In this document: positions 2,363-31,597 of the stretch, in pieces
Layout of the letters: each line of letters opens with the position of its first letter
How positions within the stretch are numbered: the stretch's first letter is position 1
Virus record (IMG/VR): IMGVR_UViG_3300026334_000001
Coordinates: 26,053 to 90,052 of that record
DNA from: a virus
Direction: 5' to 3' (one strand)
Length of the DNA: 64,000 bases
Program-made: the position numbers and the translations under genes
The notes under the pieces: model-generated
What the model was told of the DNA's origin: nothing
Seen by the model: only the letters and a program-made list of their open reading frames with translations
Databases searched by the model: none

Positions 2363-5300
2363 ATGTCAAAGAAAAGAAGTTTACCACAAGCTCCAATAGA
2401 TTATACTAATCCATCGGATGAAGATATTGCAAGAGGGTTAAAACAATATGGAGTTAGTCCTTACTTAACGCCAGCTCGTCCAGAAAGTGCTATTGAATAT
2501 GGTACAGATGTAAGTCAGTATGGAACTGGACTTATAGGAGAAAAAGGTGGTGAAGGTTTCATAACTGCTCCCGAAGAACAGTTTCAAGATATAGCTGCTC
2601 AAAATCAAGGAGCTGGTTCAATGCTCTTAAGAGGAACAGGTAGATTACTTGGAGGAGCTGCTATGAAAACTCTTGAAGGGTTTTCTTTGTTAGGTTCTGG
2701 AGTACTAGGAGGTATATATGATGCTACTGGATTAGATCAAGCTATTGGTGGTAAAGAAATGACTTGGGATGATTATGTAGATAATCCTGTTAATAATACT
2801 TTATTCAAAGCAGAAGATTGGATGAAGAGTAAAATGCAGATTTATAAACCAAGTGATTGGAATAGTAAGTCTTTTCTAGAACAAGTTTCTTCTGGTGCTT
2901 GGTGGGCAGATGAAGGATCAGATGCAGCTGCATTTGCTCTATCTACATTACTTCCAGCTGGATTATTAGGAGATGCTGGTATAGGTGCTAAAATGATGGG
3001 AACTGTTGGAGAAGGTGCTGGTATGATTGATGAAGCAGGACAAGTACTTAATTCTGGAACTAAAGTAGCTAAAGCTCTTAATGGTGGAGCTAAAGCTTTA
3101 AATAAAGTATCACAAGCATTAAATTTTGGTGAAGTTGGAATGCTTAACTTACCAAAGACAGCAGGAACAATAGATAACTTAGTTACTAATGCATTGATGA
3201 CTACATCAGAAGCTTTATTTGAAGCTAGAGATACTGGTCAACAAATGAAGCAGGAAGTAGTTAAGAAGTGGAATGAAACATATCCAAATCAGAAAGTTAG
3301 TGACTTTGAAGAACTACCAGATCAAGTTAAGCAAACAGAGAAAGAAAAGATGTCTGGTAATCAGAGAGATACTTTCTTAGCTAACTTAGCAGCTCTATCA
3401 TTTACTAATAAGTTTGAAACAGCATTATTAAATAAGTTTGGTTCTCAAACTGCTAAAGCAGGTCTTAAAGCTTTGGAGGTATCAGATGAATTACTTACAC
3501 CAGCAGCTAGATTAACTAAGAAAGGAATTTCAGGTTTCTTTGAAAATACAGGTTTAAAATCTGCATTAAAAGAAGCTGCTACTGGAGCATTTATGGAAGG
3601 TATCTTAGAAGAAAATATTCAAAGTGCTATTCAAAATGTAAGTCAACATTATAGTGGTAATGGAAAAGATAACTGGTTTTTAGATGCTTTAGATTATACA
3701 GGTGATGTTGTTAAAGGATCATTTGATAATTTATCAGATCAAGAAGCATGGAAGTCTATTGGTTCTGGTATGGTTATTGGTGCATTAAGTGGTGTAATAG
3801 GTGGATTTAAAGAACACAGACAAGAAGTAAAAGATGCTAATCATGTTGCAGGTAGATTAAATGAAGCTACTAATAACTTCTTAAATGTAGGAAATGCTTT
3901 ATACGAAAGAATTCCAGTTATTGATGAACAAGGTAATCCAACAGGAGCTACCAAAATTAAATTAGATCAAGAAGGAAATCCATTATATAATAATGAAGCT
4001 CTTAATAGATTCATGGCTAATCAAGCTATGGTTTCTTCATTAGAATCAATTGCAGATCTTTATCAATCTACAGGAAATGAGGAGATAGCAAGTTACGTTA
4101 AGAATGAAGCTTTCTCTAAATGGGCGCAAGCACATTTAGAATCTGGATTAGGAGAAGAAATGTATGCCAAGTTAAAGAAACTTGGAACAATGAAAGATAC
4201 GGATCTTCTACAATCTAATATACCAATTACTACTGTACAAGGAGAAAAGGTATCTTCACAAGCAATAGCTAATCAATATATAGCTAAAGCTAAGGAGTTA
4301 GAAGCAGATTATAGACAAATATCTAAAACAATACCAGCTGAACAATCAGGTCGTATTGATAATGCATATCAAACTAAATCTAGATTAAGGGAATTAGGTA
4401 AACTTAAGGATGCTTTAAATTTAAAGCTAGGAGATTATCAGAATAAAATTAGATCTGGTAATGATACAGTTGATCTTATTAATAGAAAGGTAACTCAATT
4501 AGAAGCATCTAAAGCACAATCGGAGTTCTTTGTAAATGCTAGTGGAGAAAATGCACAAGCTTATTTGAGTTCATTAGATAGACTTGAGAAAGAAATAACT
4601 CAATTAAAAGCAGATAATAAGGATATGTTACAGGATCAAGGTCATGATGTAACTCCAGGTATTGAACCTATTCCTTATCAAACAGCTGGAATGTTTAAGT
4701 CTGATTTTCAAGATTACACTAAAACTAATGATAAACTTGCTGCTATTGAAGGTGGTTCAGCAGAATTAATGGATCATTATAATGGTGTTATTGATTATAA
4801 AAATGGCGAAGAGTTTTATAATAACTATCTAAATCAAGGAGTTGCAGGACATAATCTTAAATCTGAACTTGAAAAAGCTGTAACTGAACAACAAGCAGTT
4901 GTAGATAGACAAGAAGAAGATCAATGGCGAGAGTTTCAAGATAATCTTAAACAAGGAGATTTCTTAGAAACTCCTACTGAACAAGGTTATGTAGCTAAAG
5001 ATGCAGATGGAAATTTAACTTTTAATAATAGAATTATAACTCCAGCAGTTCTTAGAGCATTACAACCAACTAAAGTTAGTGAAGCTGATGTAGCTTTACG
5101 TAAACAAGAAGCTTTAGATAATACTCGTAGAAATCAAATGCAAGCTAGAGTAACTGGTAATCTTCAAGATATATCAGTACTTAATGATGCTATTAGACGT
5201 GGAGAAGATGGATTATTGAATAATCAAATTGAATTAGAAAAATTAATAAACAAATCAAATGGTAAAGCTAACAGCACTCAAAATCAAATTGCTAAACAAA

Positions 5301-23422: not shown

Positions 23423-23693
23423 CTTGTTTTGGTACTAATGATATAACTTGAACTTCTGTGACAGTAGGATCATTTATTGGAAATGATCTTATAATAATAG
23501 GAAAATTAACAGAATAATCTTCTAATCCAGCTTGTATTGTTTTAACAACTATATGATCTGTATCTTCTATTGCTATTTTTTCTTTAATAGCCTCTTGAAA
23601 AGATTCTACTAAATTCTCTTTAACTTCTACAATAGCTTGCATATGACGTTCTATTGTAACTATTTCAGTATATTTAATTATAAAGTCTGCCAT
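23403..23693 (-). CDS. Hypothetical protein
   Basis: 96-aa ORF in a tightly packed operon. Confidence 0.55.
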   Translation of the reverse strand: MADFIIKYTEIVTIERHMQAIVEVKENLVESFQEAIKEKIAIEDTDHIVVKTIQAGLEDYSVNFPIIIRSFPINDPTVTEVQVISLVPKQDDQQNP

Positions 23694-24697
23694 TTTTCTA
23701 AATTTAAAACCATATTACCATATAAATGTTCTTCATAAGACATATTCCAAAGATTATTATCTATATGATATTGAATTCTATTTAATAGACTTACAATTTC
23801 ATGATAACCTTCTTCTATAACCTTTTCTTCTATCTCCCAAACAACACATTGATATAAACCAAATGTTTCTACAACTACATTTTTATAAATAAATTTGTAT
23901 TGATAAGCATCTAGAATATCATTTTGTGATAAAAATTCTGAAACAGCTCTTTTATAGAATGCTAGTTGTCTATGATATCTCCAAAACTTAATAGTTTCTG
24001 GAAATAGATATGCTGATTTTGATGTAGTCTTAATATCAGTTATTGTAATAGTCTTATCTTCTAAATCTATTTCAACATCATCAAATTTAGCTTTACATTT
24101 TAATCCCATCCATTCAAAGAATACTACTTGTTCTTTATAGTATAGTTTATCAGAGAAATCATCTTTCCAGAATAATAGTTTATTAGCTGCATCATTAGCT
24201 TTAATAGAAGCAGTACATTTTTCTACTGTTTCTTTAACTGCTTTAGTTAAGAACTGCTTTCCACTATTAGCTATGTCTAAAGCTTCAATAACATAAGGAA
24301 CTATCTTAGGACAAGCATTTTTCATAACTGCTTCATCTCCCCACTTAGCATTCCAACCTACAGTTCTACAAACTTGTAAAGTTAATAAATCTAAATCATA
24401 AGGCTCAGAAACTAAACCTTCTGTAATAGACTTAACTAGAATATCTGCAATTTGACCAAGTGTTTCTGCGGGTTTATCTATTTCTGCAACTATAAATGCA
24501 TCTGGATTTTCTGCCCAAAGATGTATTGCTGAACCTTGTATTAATGATCTATTTTCTTTTTCTTCTTTATTATCATTAAAGAACTCCAAAAATTTTAACG
24601 GGGAGCCACCCTGCAAAGAATTTATATGTGATAAACTAGAATTAGAAACTACAATATCATCTGCTGTACCTACTTTATAATAATCTTGATCTTTCAT
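23678..24697 (-). CDS. PD-(D/E)XK exonuclease (RecE/exonuclease VIII-like)
   Basis: VSNSSL, GSAIH, EQ...KAKFD...DIKTT and YHRQLAFY motifs. Confidence 0.85.
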   Translation of the reverse strand: MKDQDYYKVGTADDIVVSNSSLSHINSLQGGSPLKFLEFFNDNKEEKENRSLIQGSAIHLWAENPDAFIVAEIDKPAETLGQIADILVKSITEGLVSEPYDLDLLTLQVCRTVGWNAKWGDEAVMKNACPKIVPYVIEALDIANSGKQFLTKAVKETVEKCTASIKANDAANKLLFWKDDFSDKLYYKEQVVFFEWMGLKCKAKFDDVEIDLEDKTITITDIKTTSKSAYLFPETIKFWRYHRQLAFYKRAVSEFLSQNDILDAYQYKFIYKNVVVETFGLYQCVVWEIEEKVIEEGYHEIVSLLNRIQYHIDNNLWNMSYEEHLYGNMVLNLEKWQTL

Positions 24698-25189: not shown

Positions 25190-26127
25190 TCTTTTTTAAT
25201 TACTCGTGAATCCTTTTTGTTTTCTCCATCTAACATTTTGCGATAGGGAATAAACCCTTTTATATTACCGCACCATCCACGATCTTCTACAATTAATCCA
25301 TTTTTGGGTTTAGTATGAGAATATGCTATTAATTCATCTGATCTCATGCATCTACACGTATGTTCAAAAGGACTGAAATGACCAGACATTAATAATCTAT
25401 CATGTAATTTAATATCATTAAGATAGTTATCTGATTTTCCCTCTTCTCCAACAATAGTATAACTAATTCTTGCACATCGAGAAACTGAAATCTTAATTCT
25501 AAGATTATTAATATGTTCTATAATATCAGTATTACTATAAGGAACTTCTCTTAATAATTTATCCATATCTATACCATCTCCGAATGGAATATGGTATTCT
25601 CCTTCTTTTAATGATTTAGGAGTTGAATTATTATACTCTTCCATCATAACTCTAGCTAATTCTGCTATATGAATTTCAGCTGCTTCATGATTACGCAAAG
25701 CAAAGAAATTCTCAAATTCTGATGCAGTTATAATAGCTGTATGCCACATGAATGGTTCTAATAAACGATTACATATCTGCTTTGTTACTCCCAATTCAGA
25801 TAATTTAACAGCACAATCAACTGCTTCATCTCTAGCACCTAACCATTCAAGAACCAATAAATCTATCTCTTTTTGATCTTCTACATATTCAGTTCCTTGC
25901 ATTCCTTTATGATCCTTCATCCATCGTATAGGAATGAAAGGATTATTTTCTACAGCTTCTATCATCCTTTCAAATGGTATAGCTCTGCTAGATGCTGAAT
26001 TTCTACTTAATACCCTGTGAGTGTTCAGCTCCGCCAAGATTATACGCGGAAACGTCACTACAAAGGTTGTTAATCTGTGATTTGCTGGCGATAAACTATC
26101 TGCCACGATTTTAGCTTCTATTTTCAT
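25171..26127 (-). CDS. thyX: Flavin-dependent thymidylate synthase
   Basis: AELNTHRVLSRNSASSRAIP, KQICNRLLEPF, CARISY and GHFSPFEH motifs. Confidence 0.9.
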   Translation of the reverse strand: MKIEAKIVADSLSPANHRLTTFVVTFPRIILAELNTHRVLSRNSASSRAIPFERMIEAVENNPFIPIRWMKDHKGMQGTEYVEDQKEIDLLVLEWLGARDEAVDCAVKLSELGVTKQICNRLLEPFMWHTAIITASEFENFFALRNHEAAEIHIAELARVMMEEYNNSTPKSLKEGEYHIPFGDGIDMDKLLREVPYSNTDIIEHINNLRIKISVSRCARISYTIVGEEGKSDNYLNDIKLHDRLLMSGHFSPFEHTCRCMRSDELIAYSHTKPKNGLIVEDRGWCGNIKGFIPYRKMLDGENKKDSRVIKKEWKLEN

Positions 26128-27303: not shown

Positions 27304-27490
27304 ACTTCTTGACTAAATCAAAATTATCTAAAAAAGCTTCAATATTAGCATATTCTTTAATATGCTCTTTTCTTGAAGCTTCTCTTATTTTAATCTTACC
27401 TTCTACAGTTTTCATTTGTAGATCATAAAATACTTTATTATAGTAACCAGATACATTTTCTGATATACATCTTGCTCTTACTAGAATCAT
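27290..27490 (-). CDS. Hypothetical protein
   Basis: 66-aa ORF overlapping its neighbours. Confidence 0.55.
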   Translation of the reverse strand: MILVRARCISENVSGYYNKVFYDLQMKTVEGKIKIREASRKEHIKEYANIEAFLDNFDLVKKYVGR

Positions 27491-28476
27491 ACTAACTCGT
27501 ATTTTGCTTCTTCTATTAAATCTAACATATATTGCAGACCATAGTGCTTGCAGTGATCTGTAAAATCCTTTGGTTCTGACTGCCTTCTAAATAAACCATT
27601 TGATTCAAATAGCAAAGGTTTAGTACCATACGTTTTTCTCATTATTTGAGCCATTCTCATTCCAGCTCTATCTCTATCAAATAGCGAAAAAACATTAAAA
27701 AATCTATTCTCTAAGCCACAATACTCCTTCTCTCCTATAAGGATTGACTCTGCTGCTGGAGCAAGTGATGGTATTTCAAATCCATCAAGAGCCATCACAT
27801 CTTTATATGACTTAGTTATTAGAAGACTCTCTCCTTCTTCTGGTAATTGATCCCATCCTTCTAAAATATCTCCAGTTGCTTGAATGAATTTAAAGAACTT
27901 CCTTTTTGGAAAATATAATTTATATCTGTACTCTCCAAAATGGTATGCATAACCAGGATCTTTTTCTACATAATTATAGCTAAGATTACCATTTATCCAT
28001 GCCATATCTAAAGGATACACATTAAATTTAGCTAAAGCAGCTTCACTTACAAAATTATCTCTCCAAAACTTAATATCTGCTTTTGACCATCCTCTACGTT
28101 TAATACGTATTTCTGTATTCTTCCTAACTCTTTTATGAACTTCTTCTAGGAAAGAAAGTGGTTTGTAGTCAATATTTGTTCTTGATAACTGAAAGTCATT
28201 AGCTATGATTTCTAATGCTTTAAAGAAGTTAACTCCAAATAATCTCTGCACTACATTGAAGCAATCTATATTATCTCCTCTTGCAAAATCTTTAAATTTA
28301 AGAAGACCTCTTGAATCAAAATAGAATCTGCAATCTGCATGATTATCTGACCTCAAAGGATTACGAAAATAATCATGAGTATTAGGAAATAACCCCAAAT
28401 ACTTAAAGAATATATCTTCTTGGGAAATCCTATTTAATATAAACTCTCTTGTAATATCTTCTTTATATTCAAACAT
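27487..28476 (-). CDS. DNA primase (DnaG-like, TOPRIM)
   Basis: NPLRSDNHADC...FKDF N-terminal domain; ITKSYKDVMAL, FDRDRAG and KDFTD motifs. Confidence 0.85.
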   Translation of the reverse strand: MFEYKEDITREFILNRISQEDIFFKYLGLFPNTHDYFRNPLRSDNHADCRFYFDSRGLLKFKDFARGDNIDCFNVVQRLFGVNFFKALEIIANDFQLSRTNIDYKPLSFLEEVHKRVRKNTEIRIKRRGWSKADIKFWRDNFVSEAALAKFNVYPLDMAWINGNLSYNYVEKDPGYAYHFGEYRYKLYFPKRKFFKFIQATGDILEGWDQLPEEGESLLITKSYKDVMALDGFEIPSLAPAAESILIGEKEYCGLENRFFNVFSLFDRDRAGMRMAQIMRKTYGTKPLLFESNGLFRRQSEPKDFTDHCKHYGLQYMLDLIEEAKYELV

Positions 28477-28521: not shown

Positions 28522-29118
28522 CTAGAAATCTGAATCAACTTTTTGACCACCATTTAAAGAAGATACTTCTGTATCTGGAGCAGCATTAAGTGAATTGAAA
28601 TATGCTGAATTAGCTTTGATATGATTTTTATCAAACTCTAGCATATCACCTGCTTTTACAATGAATGGCAAGTATTTAGAGAAATCGCTAGTTGCTTTAC
28701 CATTGTAAACATTACCTACTACAATGAAATCAACTTTAACTCCTTTATAAGAAGTACCAATAGTTTGAACAACCCAGTTTGCATAATCATCAAAATTATT
28801 ATGATTTTGATATAAACGATCTTTAGCTACAAACTTAGACATAATATGACCAACACGTTTAGCCATATTTAAAGCTTTTGCTTCTGCATTATCGTCTTCT
28901 GGAAGAACAGCATATTCAATATGTTGATGTGCTTTTCCTTCTGCTGTCTTGAATGTAAATACAAGACGTGCTTTTAACTGCTCTGATTCTCCTTCTGCAT
29001 TTTCCTTAACTGGTCTACTAATTTCCACCCCTGTCATTTCTGCATTTGTGTATTTAGCTGGTTGCAATTTAGGGGTTGAAATTCCTTCAAAGTTAGTTTT
29101 TTCGTTAGTACCGAACAT
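28522..29118 (-). CDS. Putative single-stranded DNA-binding protein
   Basis: Next to primase; beta-rich N-terminus; acidic-aromatic C-terminus (...VDSDF). Confidence 0.5.
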   Translation of the reverse strand: MFGTNEKTNFEGISTPKLQPAKYTNAEMTGVEISRPVKENAEGESEQLKARLVFTFKTAEGKAHQHIEYAVLPEDDNAEAKALNMAKRVGHIMSKFVAKDRLYQNHNNFDDYANWVVQTIGTSYKGVKVDFIVVGNVYNGKATSDFSKYLPFIVKAGDMLEFDKNHIKANSAYFNSLNAAPDTEVSSLNGGQKVDSDF

Positions 29119-29228: not shown

Positions 29229-29798
29229 TTAGAAGTTATCATCATCTGCTTCTTGAACATCAGCAGTTTCTTCTACTGCTACATCTTCATCTTCTGCTGT
29301 ATCTTCATCAGTTTCTTCATTATCAGCAGTTGTTTCAACTGAACTAATAGCGTAGATACCATGACACAAAATACCATTTACCTCGGTATCTTGACCTACT
29401 AAAGACAACTCTAAAAGTTGAGCTTTGTAGCTATCTTCTTGAATAGTACCTTGACCGATCAAAGCATTCTCCAAAATTGAAGACTTAAATTTACGACCTT
29501 TTTCTGCATCAGCAGCTAATTTCGCAGTACGTTTTAGTACAGTAGCATTATCATTATCTACGGTAGCTAAATATGGAACTCCATCTGGAGAAGTGATTTG
29601 CATCAAACCTACATTTGACAAATTCAATTCTTCAAATTTAGCATCTGCAATGGTAAATACTGTTTCAACTTTCTCTACTCCACCTTTCTTAGAGATGAAC
29701 TTCTTAAATTTGAAACTGAATTTTTGACCTTTAGGACGACTAGCTGAAGTTTTAGTGTTTGCTGTTTTAACTGCTTTAAAATTTGCGAAATTTAACAT
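29229..29798 (-). CDS. Hypothetical protein with long acidic tail (SSB-like)
   Basis: Basic N-terminus, tail ...DNEETDEDTAEDED...DDDNF; own promoter upstream and terminator hairpin at ~29179-29204. Confidence 0.5.
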   Translation of the reverse strand: MLNFANFKAVKTANTKTSASRPKGQKFSFKFKKFISKKGGVEKVETVFTIADAKFEELNLSNVGLMQITSPDGVPYLATVDNDNATVLKRTAKLAADAEKGRKFKSSILENALIGQGTIQEDSYKAQLLELSLVGQDTEVNGILCHGIYAISSVETTADNEETDEDTAEDEDVAVEETADVQEADDDNF

Positions 29799-29916: not shown

Positions 29917-30636
29917 CTAATTGCCGTAATCTTCTAAAATCCTATCTACTATCGTTTGATAGTTATTTGAAATTTCATACTGTTCCCAATAACCTTGAGG
30001 ACTTCTAGCTGTATTATATCCAGAATTTGCAGTAGTTAATTTATACCTATTTACATCTGTATGTGGTAAATTAGCATCAACTTTTGTATAATAGGTATGA
30101 GAAAGATTCAATCCTTCAACTCCTAATTTGGTAGCCATTTTACCTAAGATTCTTAATCTTTGTCGGATTTCTCCAGCTTCAGCTTTATAATCTTCAATAT
30201 GACCATTAATAAAAATAATTAAAGTACCTTTTCTTTTACCATGAATACCAAAAATTTGCTTCTTTACTGTTTCATAGTCTTCTACTTCCTTATAATTCTT
30301 TTTACTATTATCAATTGGATATTTATTTCTAGCTCCAAAGAAAGTTAATGGTTTTCCATCAGCATTTAACCAAGCCGTTTCTTCTGGATTTAAGAAAGAA
30401 CCTCCTACTGTCTTCCCCGTTCCTTCATGTCCCAAGACTTGAACCAAAACCACATCATCAAGTCTTTTCATCCAATCATAAAGATCTAGTATTTCAGTAC
30501 CGTAATCTCTCCACATATCGTAGTTAGCTTTACCTACATCCTTTAGATGTCTTAAATACAGCTTATTTTGTACACCATTTATGGTATCCAATATTATACT
30601 TCTGTATTTCTTGTCATTCATTACTATTTCACTCAT
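29917..30636 (-). CDS. AAA_24/Sak4-like P-loop ATPase with rearranged motif order
   Basis: IILD at aa 14-17, GHEGTGKT at aa 69-76, LNPEETAWLNADGKPL, RILGKM, TARSP. Confidence 0.7.
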   Translation of the reverse strand: MSEIVMNDKKYRSIILDTINGVQNKLYLRHLKDVGKANYDMWRDYGTEILDLYDWMKRLDDVVLVQVLGHEGTGKTVGGSFLNPEETAWLNADGKPLTFFGARNKYPIDNSKKNYKEVEDYETVKKQIFGIHGKRKGTLIIFINGHIEDYKAEAGEIRQRLRILGKMATKLGVEGLNLSHTYYTKVDANLPHTDVNRYKLTTANSGYNTARSPQGYWEQYEISNNYQTIVDRILEDYGN

Positions 30637-30637
30637 T

Positions 30638-31597
30638 TTAATAATCTTCTATTTGATTAAATCCTAAATTATGACGCATCATTAGATTTCCTGTCCATCC
30701 ATCTCTTTGTTTGAGAATACATTCAATCATTAAATGATCATATTGATCTGGATTGTTTGGATTAATACCAGTTGGAATATCTTCCCATGATGTAAGACCA
30801 TAAAATCCAGGTCTATGTAGAGCCATCACTATATCAGCACATTGAAAAACACTATCCGATCCGAATATATCACTAGAAACTGGAGTATTCTTTCCAATAT
30901 CATCTCTACCTCTAGCTCCAGATTCAATATTTCTATTCATCTGACTCAAAAAGATATTGATATGTTCATAATCATTCTTAATTTTCATTCCTGCCATCAT
31001 AAACTTAGATATTAATTGTTCTTCTGATCCTTCATTATCTCTTGATACTAATCTTGTATGATCTACAATATTAACAATGGTATGTTTAGGATACTTATTT
31101 GTAATCTCTATCTTTTGTTTCTTCCAAGCATTTACTGATTGTGATATTTGACTCATATAAATTGGATATCCTTTAAAAGAATCACCAATTAACTTTAATC
31201 TTGTAAACTGTTCTTCTGTTATTGTATTTTGAAAATCCAATAATTGTTTTACAGTCATTTGAGCTTCTCTACTATACATCCTTAATACTGATCTAAAATC
31301 AGCCATCTCCCATGTATCATACAGAATTATTAGTTTGCCATTATAATGAGGATTAATTCTTGGATCTACAAAGTCGCGCATCATATGTATAACCTTTGCA
31401 GTTTTACCCATACCAGTTCTAGCTGCTAAAACCATCTGATCTGTTGGATACAATCCTCCAATCTTTTCCTTTTCTTTCCTAGAAGAAGTAACTAGAGGCT
31501 TTAACTTACCACTTCTAATTAATTCAATCCTTTCATTAGTTTTATCAACTACTTTTGAAATGTGATTGTAATTAGTAGATTCTAGGTTTAACTGCAA
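30638..31597 (-). CDS. dnaB: DnaB-like replicative helicase
   Basis: AARTGMGKT, IVDH, FLSQMNR and SDIFGSDSVFQCADIV motifs; no N-terminal domain. Confidence 0.85.
   Translation of the reverse strand: MQLNLESTNYNHISKVVDKTNERIELIRSGKLKPLVTSSRKEKEKIGGLYPTDQMVLAARTGMGKTAKVIHMMRDFVDPRINPHYNGKLIILYDTWEMADFRSVLRMYSREAQMTVKQLLDFQNTITEEQFTRLKLIGDSFKGYPIYMSQISQSVNAWKKQKIEITNKYPKHTIVNIVDHTRLVSRDNEGSEEQLISKFMMAGMKIKNDYEHINIFLSQMNRNIESGARGRDDIGKNTPVSSDIFGSDSVFQCADIVMALHRPGFYGLTSWEDIPTGINPNNPDQYDHLMIECILKQRDGWTGNLMMRHNLGFNQIEDY

Follow-up and report, generated by a model that had tools for sequence, protein, structure and literature searches.

A Sak4-like phage ATPase with Walker B ahead of Walker A: a conserved, non-circular exchange of core blocks in FpV4-like phages

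A 64,000-nucleotide stretch of viral DNA (positions 26,053 to 90,052 of IMG/VR record IMGVR_UViG_3300026334_000001; hereafter the window) carries a gene for a permuted, Sak4-like RecA-fold ATPase. The source record is a phage genome of 90,052 bp with direct terminal repeats and is estimated to be complete. The encoded protein (hereafter the window protein) is homologous to the Sak4/AAA_24 core-only RecA ATPases. Its relatives read A-B-C, with the Walker A P-loop in block A, the Walker B strand in block B, and the Gly-His (GH) sensor strand in block C, whereas the gene described here reads B-A-C. Because circular shifts of A-B-C never give B-A-C, the permutation is non-circular. To our knowledge, Walker A always precedes Walker B in RecA-type P-loop cores, and our searches found no exception. 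The window protein is very probably a working Sak4-like, core-only RecA-fold ATPase that bears a natural non-circular permutation and has a role in recombination.

The gene lies on the minus strand (Table 1); the plus-strand frame over the same interval is full of stops. An earlier reading made from the sequence alone (the sequence-only reading) had quoted a series of motifs, all of which translation places in the 239-residue open reading frame (ORF) at the residues it gave. A Walker B motif of the form hhhhD is present as SIILD, which carries D17, and a Walker A motif of the form GxxxxGK[ST] is present as GHEGTGKT. The order along the chain is Walker B, Walker A, beta2, and the GH strand. Because this is not the colinear motif order of the family, we class the protein as a permuted variant, distinct from ordinary Sak4/AAA_24 members.

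Table 1. Positions in the window of the permuted ATPase gene, its blocks and motifs, and neighboring genes.
Feature	Nucleotides	Strand	Residues	Remarks
Permuted Sak4-like RecA-fold ATPase, order B-A-C	29917..30636	minus	239 plus stop	from the ORF list
Block B: Walker B strand YRSIILD and two helices, moved N-terminal	30466..30618	minus	7-57	homologous to P0083 74-120
Block A: beta1, Walker A GHEGTGKT, beta2 strand with N91/D93/K95, linker helix	30232..30465	minus	58-135	homologous to P0083 4-73
Block C: beta4, GKM...VEG, TARSP, C-terminal helix	29920..30231	minus	136-239	homologous to P0083 121-218
YRSIILDT			11-18	translation
Walker B SIILD			13-17	carries D17
D17	30586-30588		17	translation
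YDMWRDYG			39-46	translation
Walker A GHEGTGKT	30409-30432		69-76	translation
LNPEETAWLNADGKPL			82-97	translation
IIFINGHIE			140-148	translation
H146	30199-30201		146	block C
TARSP			209-213	translation
R211	30004-30006		211	block C
DnaB-like replicative helicase, upstream gene	30638..31597	minus		Pfam DnaB_C, E 2.8e-25; phrog_19, E 5.8e-21
ORF with acidic tail ...DDDNF, downstream	29229..29798	minus	189	no Pfam or PHROG match; weak Atlas matches, best 0.86
ORF with acidic tail ...DSDF, candidate DUF669-type SSB	28522..29118	minus	198	Atlas lead only
DNA primase	27487..28476	minus		phrog_12622, E 1.1e-39; closes the block helicase, Sak4, two ORFs, primase
Exonuclease-like gene, ~5 kb from the ATPase gene	23678..24697	minus		phrog_412 'exonuclease VIII', E 9.9e-25

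The block order was examined with two alignments: A1, a hidden Markov model (HMM) and alignment of 41 permuted-family members, and A2, an alignment of 60 canonical (A-B-C) proteins. Retrieved homologues are labeled with P-numbers, and P0083 is the nearest canonical relative. A1 tiles P0083 exactly, in swapped order. Block A (residues 4-73) falls on h59-130 of the model (E 7e-21), block B (74-120) on h4-53 (E 2e-8), and block C (121-218) on h129-230 (E 1e-27). A comparison of A1 with A2 in hhalign yields two alignments. The first pairs 62-239 with 2-221 (E 1.2e-48) and leaves a gap of ~45 residues exactly over the canonical Walker B block. The second pairs 7-78 with 72-152 (E 2.6e-12, probability 97.6). 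In the window protein, these A1 and hhalign comparisons found neither a second hhhhD motif between Walker A and the beta4/GH strand nor a leftover block at the canonical N-terminal position. The sequence-only reading had proposed a non-circular permutation in which the Walker B block took up an N-terminal position and the C-terminal half was left in place, and both the three tiled stretches and the paired alignments bear this out. That proposal would have been contradicted by one colinear alignment in which a Walker B follows the P-loop, but none appeared, since the colinear hhalign alignment passes over the canonical Walker B. Chance resemblance falls far short of explaining the swapped order.

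Family databases agree with this assignment to differing degrees. The PHROG family phrog_2872, annotated as 'Sak4-like ssDNA annealing protein', matches the window protein in three stretches with an E value of 1.9e-26. Pfam AAA_24 (PF13479) speaks less well for the assignment: with the cut-off at 27 bits, the window protein reaches only 10.9 (E 0.41), and this weak match aligns residues 7-73 with profile positions 61-132. We attribute the low AAA_24 scores of the permuted proteins to the permutation, which splits the score into two local matches. That AAA_24 would align as two local matches in swapped order had been predicted from the sequence, and the two matches are indeed seen, separately, in different relatives. 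Five relatives align residues ~2-66 with AAA_24 positions 60-131 (E 1e-5 to 1e-6), and two others align residues ~58-120 with positions 5-58. P0083, in contrast, is colinear with the profile, residues 3-191 matching positions 3-189 of 195 (E 1.2e-10). A precomputed AAA_24 domain was present on only 9 of 83 homologues, one of the nine being canonical. When these nine were rescanned, permuted P0060 (28.7 bits) and P0070 (30.4 bits) and canonical P0083 (42.0 bits) passed the cut-off of 27; P0021 scored 27.1 bits, and the other five lay just under it.

The permuted order is widespread among the relatives retrieved. A word-index search gave 83 homologues among 260 candidates, and an exhaustive profile search gave 1668 proteins at E <= 1e-3, 52 of them at E <= 1e-30. 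The homologues of the word-index search together with the best 150 of the 1668 profile matches make up a set of 229 proteins. When A1 was run on this set, 111 proteins matched in one colinear, full-length stretch and are classed as permuted; 48 canonical proteins matched in three tiled, swapped stretches, 46 more matched with blocks A and C only, and 24 were fragments or special cases. The 111 permuted proteins come from many independent assemblies, and the B-A-C order is found in 32 IMG/VR loci, whose contigs range in length from about 6.5 kb to 105 kb. Isolate genomes carry it as well: FpV4 and Fpv3 have the permuted gene, and FpV4 gp58 matches the permuted profile colinearly. By tblastn, 29 Flavobacterium psychrophilum phage records match the permuted protein, and queries with two divergent permuted members returned only the same 29 Flavobacterium phages and a few canonical matches.

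The residues expected to form the active site are retained throughout this group. All 111 permuted proteins carry D17, G69, G74, K75, D93, and N224, at identities down to about 36%; for H146 and for R211 the count is 109. The Walker B aspartate column is likewise D in all 48 canonical proteins with an aligned block B. Two positions distinguish the two forms. In the permuted P-loop, G[YH]EGTGKT, the glutamate E71 is found in 96 of the 111 permuted proteins, as opposed to 2 of the 94 canonical ones; at the R211 column, which is the lysine of the canonical TAKSP motif, canonical proteins have K in 82 of 94 and R in the remaining 12.

These counts bear on two alternatives. One is that the order is an artefact, either of misassembly or of a chance likeness between the N-terminus and a Walker B block. 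We regard it as exceedingly improbable: no point in its favor was found, the same order recurs across the retrieved proteins, the IMG/VR loci, and the isolate genomes, the homology of block B is significant in its own right (the second hhalign alignment above), and a second hhhhD block between Walker A and beta4 is lacking. The other is that the swap broke the active site and that the protein persists as a decayed pseudo-ATPase serving as a structural or DNA-binding scaffold. An AAA_24 score under the Pfam cut-off could be read in this way, as could a report that recombineering by PA73 Sak4 fell only 1.7-fold when its Walker A motif carried the K30A mutation, the authors having earlier surmised that the Sak4 ATP site is dispensable for recombineering (PMC5928155). 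Invariance of D17, K75, and D93, and near-invariance of H146, in such divergent proteins is unexpected for a dead site, however, and we consider decay very improbable. A search of the whole 90,052-bp record with PF13479 returned no match at E <= 1, and hence no second AAA_24 gene. Because the order recurs in independent assemblies and isolates, the key residues are invariant, and no second AAA_24 gene is seen, an assembly artefact or a dead gene is very unlikely.

Structure prediction suggests that the three-dimensional fold is kept. The AlphaFold2 model of the window protein, computed with A1, has a mean predicted local distance difference test score (pLDDT) of 92 and a predicted template modeling score of 0.90, and its strand at residues 11-17 has a pLDDT of 97. 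Block B of this model consists of a strand (11-17) and two helices (19-34 and 46-58), which correspond to the strand at 78-82 and the helices at 84-94 and 102-118 of canonical P0083. The P0083 model has a pLDDT of 96.7, and the secondary-structure elements of each of its blocks are the same as in the permuted model: block B is strand-helix-helix, block A is strand-helix-strand-helix-strand-helix, and block C starts with the long beta4 hairpin. A VIA-align search of 48,161 chains returned Sak4 (8rc5, chain 8rc5_1A) as the top match for both models. The permuted model aligns with it over 143 residues (model residues 60-236; Z 9.5, root-mean-square deviation 3.2), and the canonical P0083 model aligns over 189 residues (1-218; Z 16.7). 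The aligner is sequential and for that reason has no way to place block B. The 46-residue shortfall about equals block B in length, which is what a change in chain order and nothing else would be expected to produce. Foldseek returned no match in the PDB at E <= 0.001, its best rows being RAD51 paralogues and 8rc5 (E about 2e-3 to 7e-3), evidently because a sequential 3Di-based search is hampered by the permutation. Matches of CoaBC and other Rossmann-like proteins over model residues 9-239 (Z 4.7-6.5) were considered as a hint of a central N-terminal strand and set aside as too weak.

In RecA-type and other additional-strand, catalytic-glutamate (ASCE) proteins, the sheet order is 5-1-4-3-2, and the Walker B strand lies between beta2 and beta4. 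Taken together with this topology, the AlphaFold model and covariation suggest that the strand at residues 11-17 of the window protein occupies the corresponding place, between beta2 (87-91) and beta4 (138-144). D17 would thereby stand beside P-loop residues K75 and T76, D93, and H146. Only two loop connections would change, each shifted by one neighboring strand: the last helix of block B would lead to beta1 instead of beta4, and the last helix of block A to beta4 instead of beta3. The swap may have been tolerated because only these two connections change, and by one strand each.

Covariation was computed after removal of gappy columns and in the zero-sum gauge. With permuted proteins only (111 rows; effective number of sequences, Meff, 96), h6-12 (residues 11-17) pairs in parallel with h80-86 (residues 85-91, beta2) as the best offset (z 4.8), and the next partner is h132-140 (around residues 136-144, beta4). 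In the combined set, 5 of the 60 best pairs lie on a single beta3-beta2 diagonal. Several points detract from this placement. The coupling to beta4 is weak (z 2.4), and the canonical-only set (48 rows) gives no clear strand partner, its top offset being 70 with a z of 3.0. Moreover, the AlphaFold model and the covariation rest on one alignment and hence are not independent, so that the proposed proximity of D17 to K75 draws on model confidence, covariation at a low Meff, and elimination.

The connection from block B to beta1 also bears on a domain-swapped arrangement, in which block B of one subunit would complete the core of its neighbor and the ATP site would be complete only in oligomers. 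The sequence-only reading had allowed for either a functional rewired fold or a domain-swapped one. RecA-type proteins act as oligomers, and the linker between the last helix of block B (ending at residue 58) and beta1 (starting at residue 62) is only 3 residues long, compared with 9 between that helix and beta4 in the canonical model. The monomer model nevertheless packs block B in cis, with pLDDT values of 97 (strand) and 96 (residues 51-60), and no observation made here requires a swap between subunits. A homodimer prediction with ATP and Mg (score 0.01, mark 0.42) speaks neither for nor against self-association. Of that earlier suggestion, the rewired and probably functional fold stands, while the domain swap finds no support and appears improbable to us.

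To place the rearrangement in the history of the family, trees were built from the columns of blocks A and C only, with the 24 fragments and special cases excluded and near-duplicates thinned; the position of block B therefore cannot drive the result. After thinning at 80% identity, 95 permuted rows and 94 canonical ones remained, for which FastTree gives one change with a Shimodaira-Hasegawa (SH)-like support of 96. IQ-TREE, under a mixture model with 48 permuted and 46 canonical rows, also gives one change, with an SH-like approximate likelihood ratio test value of 99. In both unrooted trees, all permuted rows fall on one side of a single branch. The canonical rows closest to them by path length are P0083 and P0116, which are among the canonical proteins nearest the profile. 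Counting against a firmer conclusion, the trees are unrooted and their canonical rows are those nearest the profile, with the best 150 of the 1668 profile matches covered. For these reasons, a single origin of the rearrangement fits the data but is not proven.

The canonical relatives indicate where such an event may have occurred. P0083 aligns colinearly with the Sak4-like protein HkaL of phage HK620 (31.5% identity, E 2e-18) and is also colinear with g034 of Cellulophaga phage phi14:2, with uncultured crAss-like phage cr108_1, and with 26 Bacteroides phage records. In phi14:2 g034 and cr108_1 gp023, A1 matches all three blocks, in the canonical A-B-C order. Because cr108_1 and FpV4 share the gene neighborhood seen in the window and the crAss-related genes keep the canonical order, the permuted gene looks like the positional orthologue of the canonical crAss-related Sak4-like gene, rearranged in place in the FpV4-like lineage. 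We propose that the swap arose once, at the helicase-Sak4-primase locus of crAss-related phages, in a Sak4 gene that had the canonical order.

How the exchange came about was also considered. The likeness of VQVLGHE and IFINGHIE had been taken as a relic of duplication and recombination, and the beta1 segment 'VLGHE' could accordingly be a hybrid left at a beta4/beta1 recombination junction. Neither idea is supported, since the N-terminal P-loop strand of canonical P0083, in its usual place, already reads LGVEGTGKT. The set of 229 proteins showed no intermediate of the form B-A-B-C or A-B-A-C. Four permuted metagenomic proteins, P0152 (298 residues), P0115, P0118, and P0124, are longer than the others at 265-298 residues. 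They were examined as B-A-B'-C intermediates and rejected, because their extra 30-90 residues form an insertion in a block A loop, between the NxDxK strand and the linker helix, and contain no hhhhD motif.

The functional reading follows from homology to HK620 Sak4, an ATP-dependent annealer stimulated by a single-stranded DNA-binding protein (SSB), and the window protein is most likely a working recombination ATPase. As a product of an FpV4-like phage of roughly 90 kb, it would serve in ATP-dependent single-strand annealing or recombination-dependent replication, acting beside the phage DnaB-like helicase, primase, and a probable SSB. Its active site would comprise K75 and T76 of the P-loop, with D17 as the Walker B residue. 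By analogy with RecA, we take D93 to be the catalytic-acid position after beta2 and, also by analogy, H146 to be the sensor of the gamma-phosphate; R211 perhaps acts in trans. ATPase and annealing activity, and the partnership with an SSB, are predicted for the permuted protein.

Published work on the canonical family is consistent with this role. HK620 Sak4 binds and anneals DNA in an ATP-dependent manner and is stimulated by its cognate SSB, and up to 80% of sak4 genes adjoin an ssb gene, often of the DUF669 type (PMC5928155). DUF669 proteins have been argued to be SSBs with acidic tails (PMC4889955). A DUF669 SSB and a Sak4-like AAA protein mend breaks in phage DNA by recombination, the AAA protein being 68.75% identical to a Sak4-like annealing protein (PMC13687109).

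The position of the gene suggests a different role, in which the same permuted chain would chiefly assist the replicative helicase as an accessory ATPase, serving as a loader or replisome factor, and not as an annealing recombinase. One base separates the stop of the DnaB-like helicase gene from the start of the ATPase gene, and the two genes are also adjacent, and overlap, in cr108_1. An 'AAA domain ATPase', ATP_43b, is listed among the four most conserved genes of the crAss-like replication block, with DnaB, primase, and SNF2 (PMC7886860); it may or may not be of the Sak4-like family. Against an accessory role, canonical P0083, the sister protein, can be aligned along its entire length with HK620 HkaL, an annealing Sak4 (PMC5928155), the top match among solved structures belongs to a Sak4 annealing protein, and an exonuclease-like gene (phrog_412) and a possible SSB gene lie nearby, as in recombination modules. 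We regard the helicase-accessory role as a possibility of decidedly lower probability than recombination, and retain the reading of the protein as a recombination ATPase.

Compared with the Sak4 family (HK620 HkaL/Sak4, PMC5928155; 8rc5; PF13479; PHROG 2872), the permuted proteins have homology in all three blocks, a RecA-type fold with 8rc5 as the top solved match, and the Walker A, Walker B aspartate, GH sensor strand, and TA[KR]SP motifs. They are also similar in size, without extra domains, and lie in a phage replication and recombination module, possibly with a DUF669-type SSB nearby. They differ in block order, in the arginine of TARSP and the P-loop glutamate described above, and, for the window protein, in falling under the AAA_24 cut-off. 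With the canonical Sak4-like proteins of Crassvirales (phi14:2 g034 and cr108_1 gp023), they share the genomic slot of cr108_1 and an origin in large phages of ~90-100 kb, mostly with Bacteroidota hosts. Those proteins keep the A-B-C order, whereas the permuted form is seen only in FpV4-like phages (29 records) and related metagenomic contigs.

Reordered motifs are known in other P-loop proteins. GTPases of the YlqF/YjeQ type are circularly permuted P-loop NTPases in which the motifs are reordered as G4-G5-G1-G2-G3, with the fold and active site kept. Their permutation is circular and Walker A still precedes Walker B, whereas here two neighboring internal blocks are exchanged. A natural non-circular reordering in a phage protein has been described for the HK97 capsid fold of Bordetella phage BPP-1 (PMC3863775); that case concerns a structural capsid protein and not an enzyme core with ordered catalytic motifs. 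In the literature searched, which was that outside subscription journals and supplements, we came across no report that placed Walker B before Walker A in a Sak4, RecA-fold, or P-loop ATPase. The exchange is a conserved rearrangement of a rare kind in a very well-studied enzyme core. It is likely, in our judgment, that it represents a non-circular swap within a RecA-fold catalytic core that arose once, still assembles the same active site, became fixed in a crAss-related clade, and has gone undescribed in that literature.

If this is correct, the order in which the strands of an ASCE core are synthesized would not be essential for folding or catalysis. A conserved exception with intact catalytic residues would show that neighboring core blocks can be swapped without loss of the fold, which bears on evolution, folding pathways, and design. 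The locus would also offer a natural, matched pair of permuted and canonical orthologues for studying how such swaps evolve. Given the K-to-R change in TAKSP and the glutamate in the P-loop, the swap may accompany changed regulation. In annotation, the recombination gene of the FpV4-like phage group is easily left as 'hypothetical' because the swap halves the AAA_24 domain score. Sak4-SSB pairs are now recombineering tools (PMC13687109), and a divergent permuted clade may therefore have practical interest.

The gene order around the ATPase is helicase, Sak4-like gene, two ORFs, and primase in this phage, in FpV4, and in cr108_1. The FpV4 annotation lists the Sak4-like gene, two ORFs, primase, and uracil-DNA glycosylase, and that of cr108_1 lists replicative helicase, Sak4-like gene, two small ORFs, and primase. 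The arrangement is looser in phi14:2, in which one ORF separates the Sak4-like gene from the primase gene downstream and the DnaB gene lies four genes upstream. The wider minus-strand block of the window also contains genes for a superfamily 2 helicase, the exonuclease-like protein, thymidylate synthase, deoxynucleoside monophosphate kinase, and DNA ligase. The exonuclease-like gene could encode the nuclease partner of the annealing protein.

Both ORFs between the ATPase and primase genes are fast-evolving, and both have acidic tails with a terminal F, as in SSB-type proteins. A tblastn search of the other 50 loci with the two ORFs gave no match, except for a weak match of the 189-residue ORF in one locus (L008). 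The 198-residue ORF matches Atlas structure rows named DUF669, with template modeling scores of 0.63/0.73 and 0.47/0.50, and has an Atlas feature match of 0.95 to a cluster with DUF669 on 14% of its members. It has no Pfam or PHROG match, which speaks against its being the SSB partner; for this reason the assignment as a DUF669-type SSB stays a lead only.

A permuted homologue with 36% identity over residues 14-233 is present on an 18,953-bp contig (L051) of a metagenome-assembled genome labeled uncultured Neisseriaceae. It was the only match in a scan of a genome collection with one pattern, and it speaks neither for nor against prophage copies. The contig may be of phage origin and have been binned with a bacterial genome.

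In several relatives, the permuted gene is interrupted. The Sak4-like gene of Fpv1 (NC_031914.1, 1555-3064) is split inside block B, at ...WKD / YG..., into exon 1 (1555-1677) and exon 2 (2399-3064), and the record annotates exon 2 alone as a Sak4-like protein. Between the exons lies a group I intron (Rfam RF00028, 59.3 bits, 1652-1885), and the intron match is followed by an ORF of 195 residues with what we take to be a GIY-YIG-type start. This split in block B explains why 22 of the 29 Flavobacterium phage records match only from residue 50. The same block B site is interrupted by about 850-1100 nucleotides in three further loci (L031 and L032, 2781-4576; L033, 2873-4428), with no Rfam intron in these inserts at the gathering score or at E <= 0.05. 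The L031 insert carries an ORF of 251 residues with two presumed LAGLIDADG motifs. In another locus (L035, 4001-5071), an insert of about 375 nucleotides, without an ORF or an Rfam match, interrupts the Walker A codons; the protein sequence of exon 1 runs to ...GSPG, and the profile match continues from column 68. Introns were considered as the cause of the swap and rejected, as these interruptions fall inside block B (column 38/39) and within the Walker A codons (67/68), and not at the block junctions.

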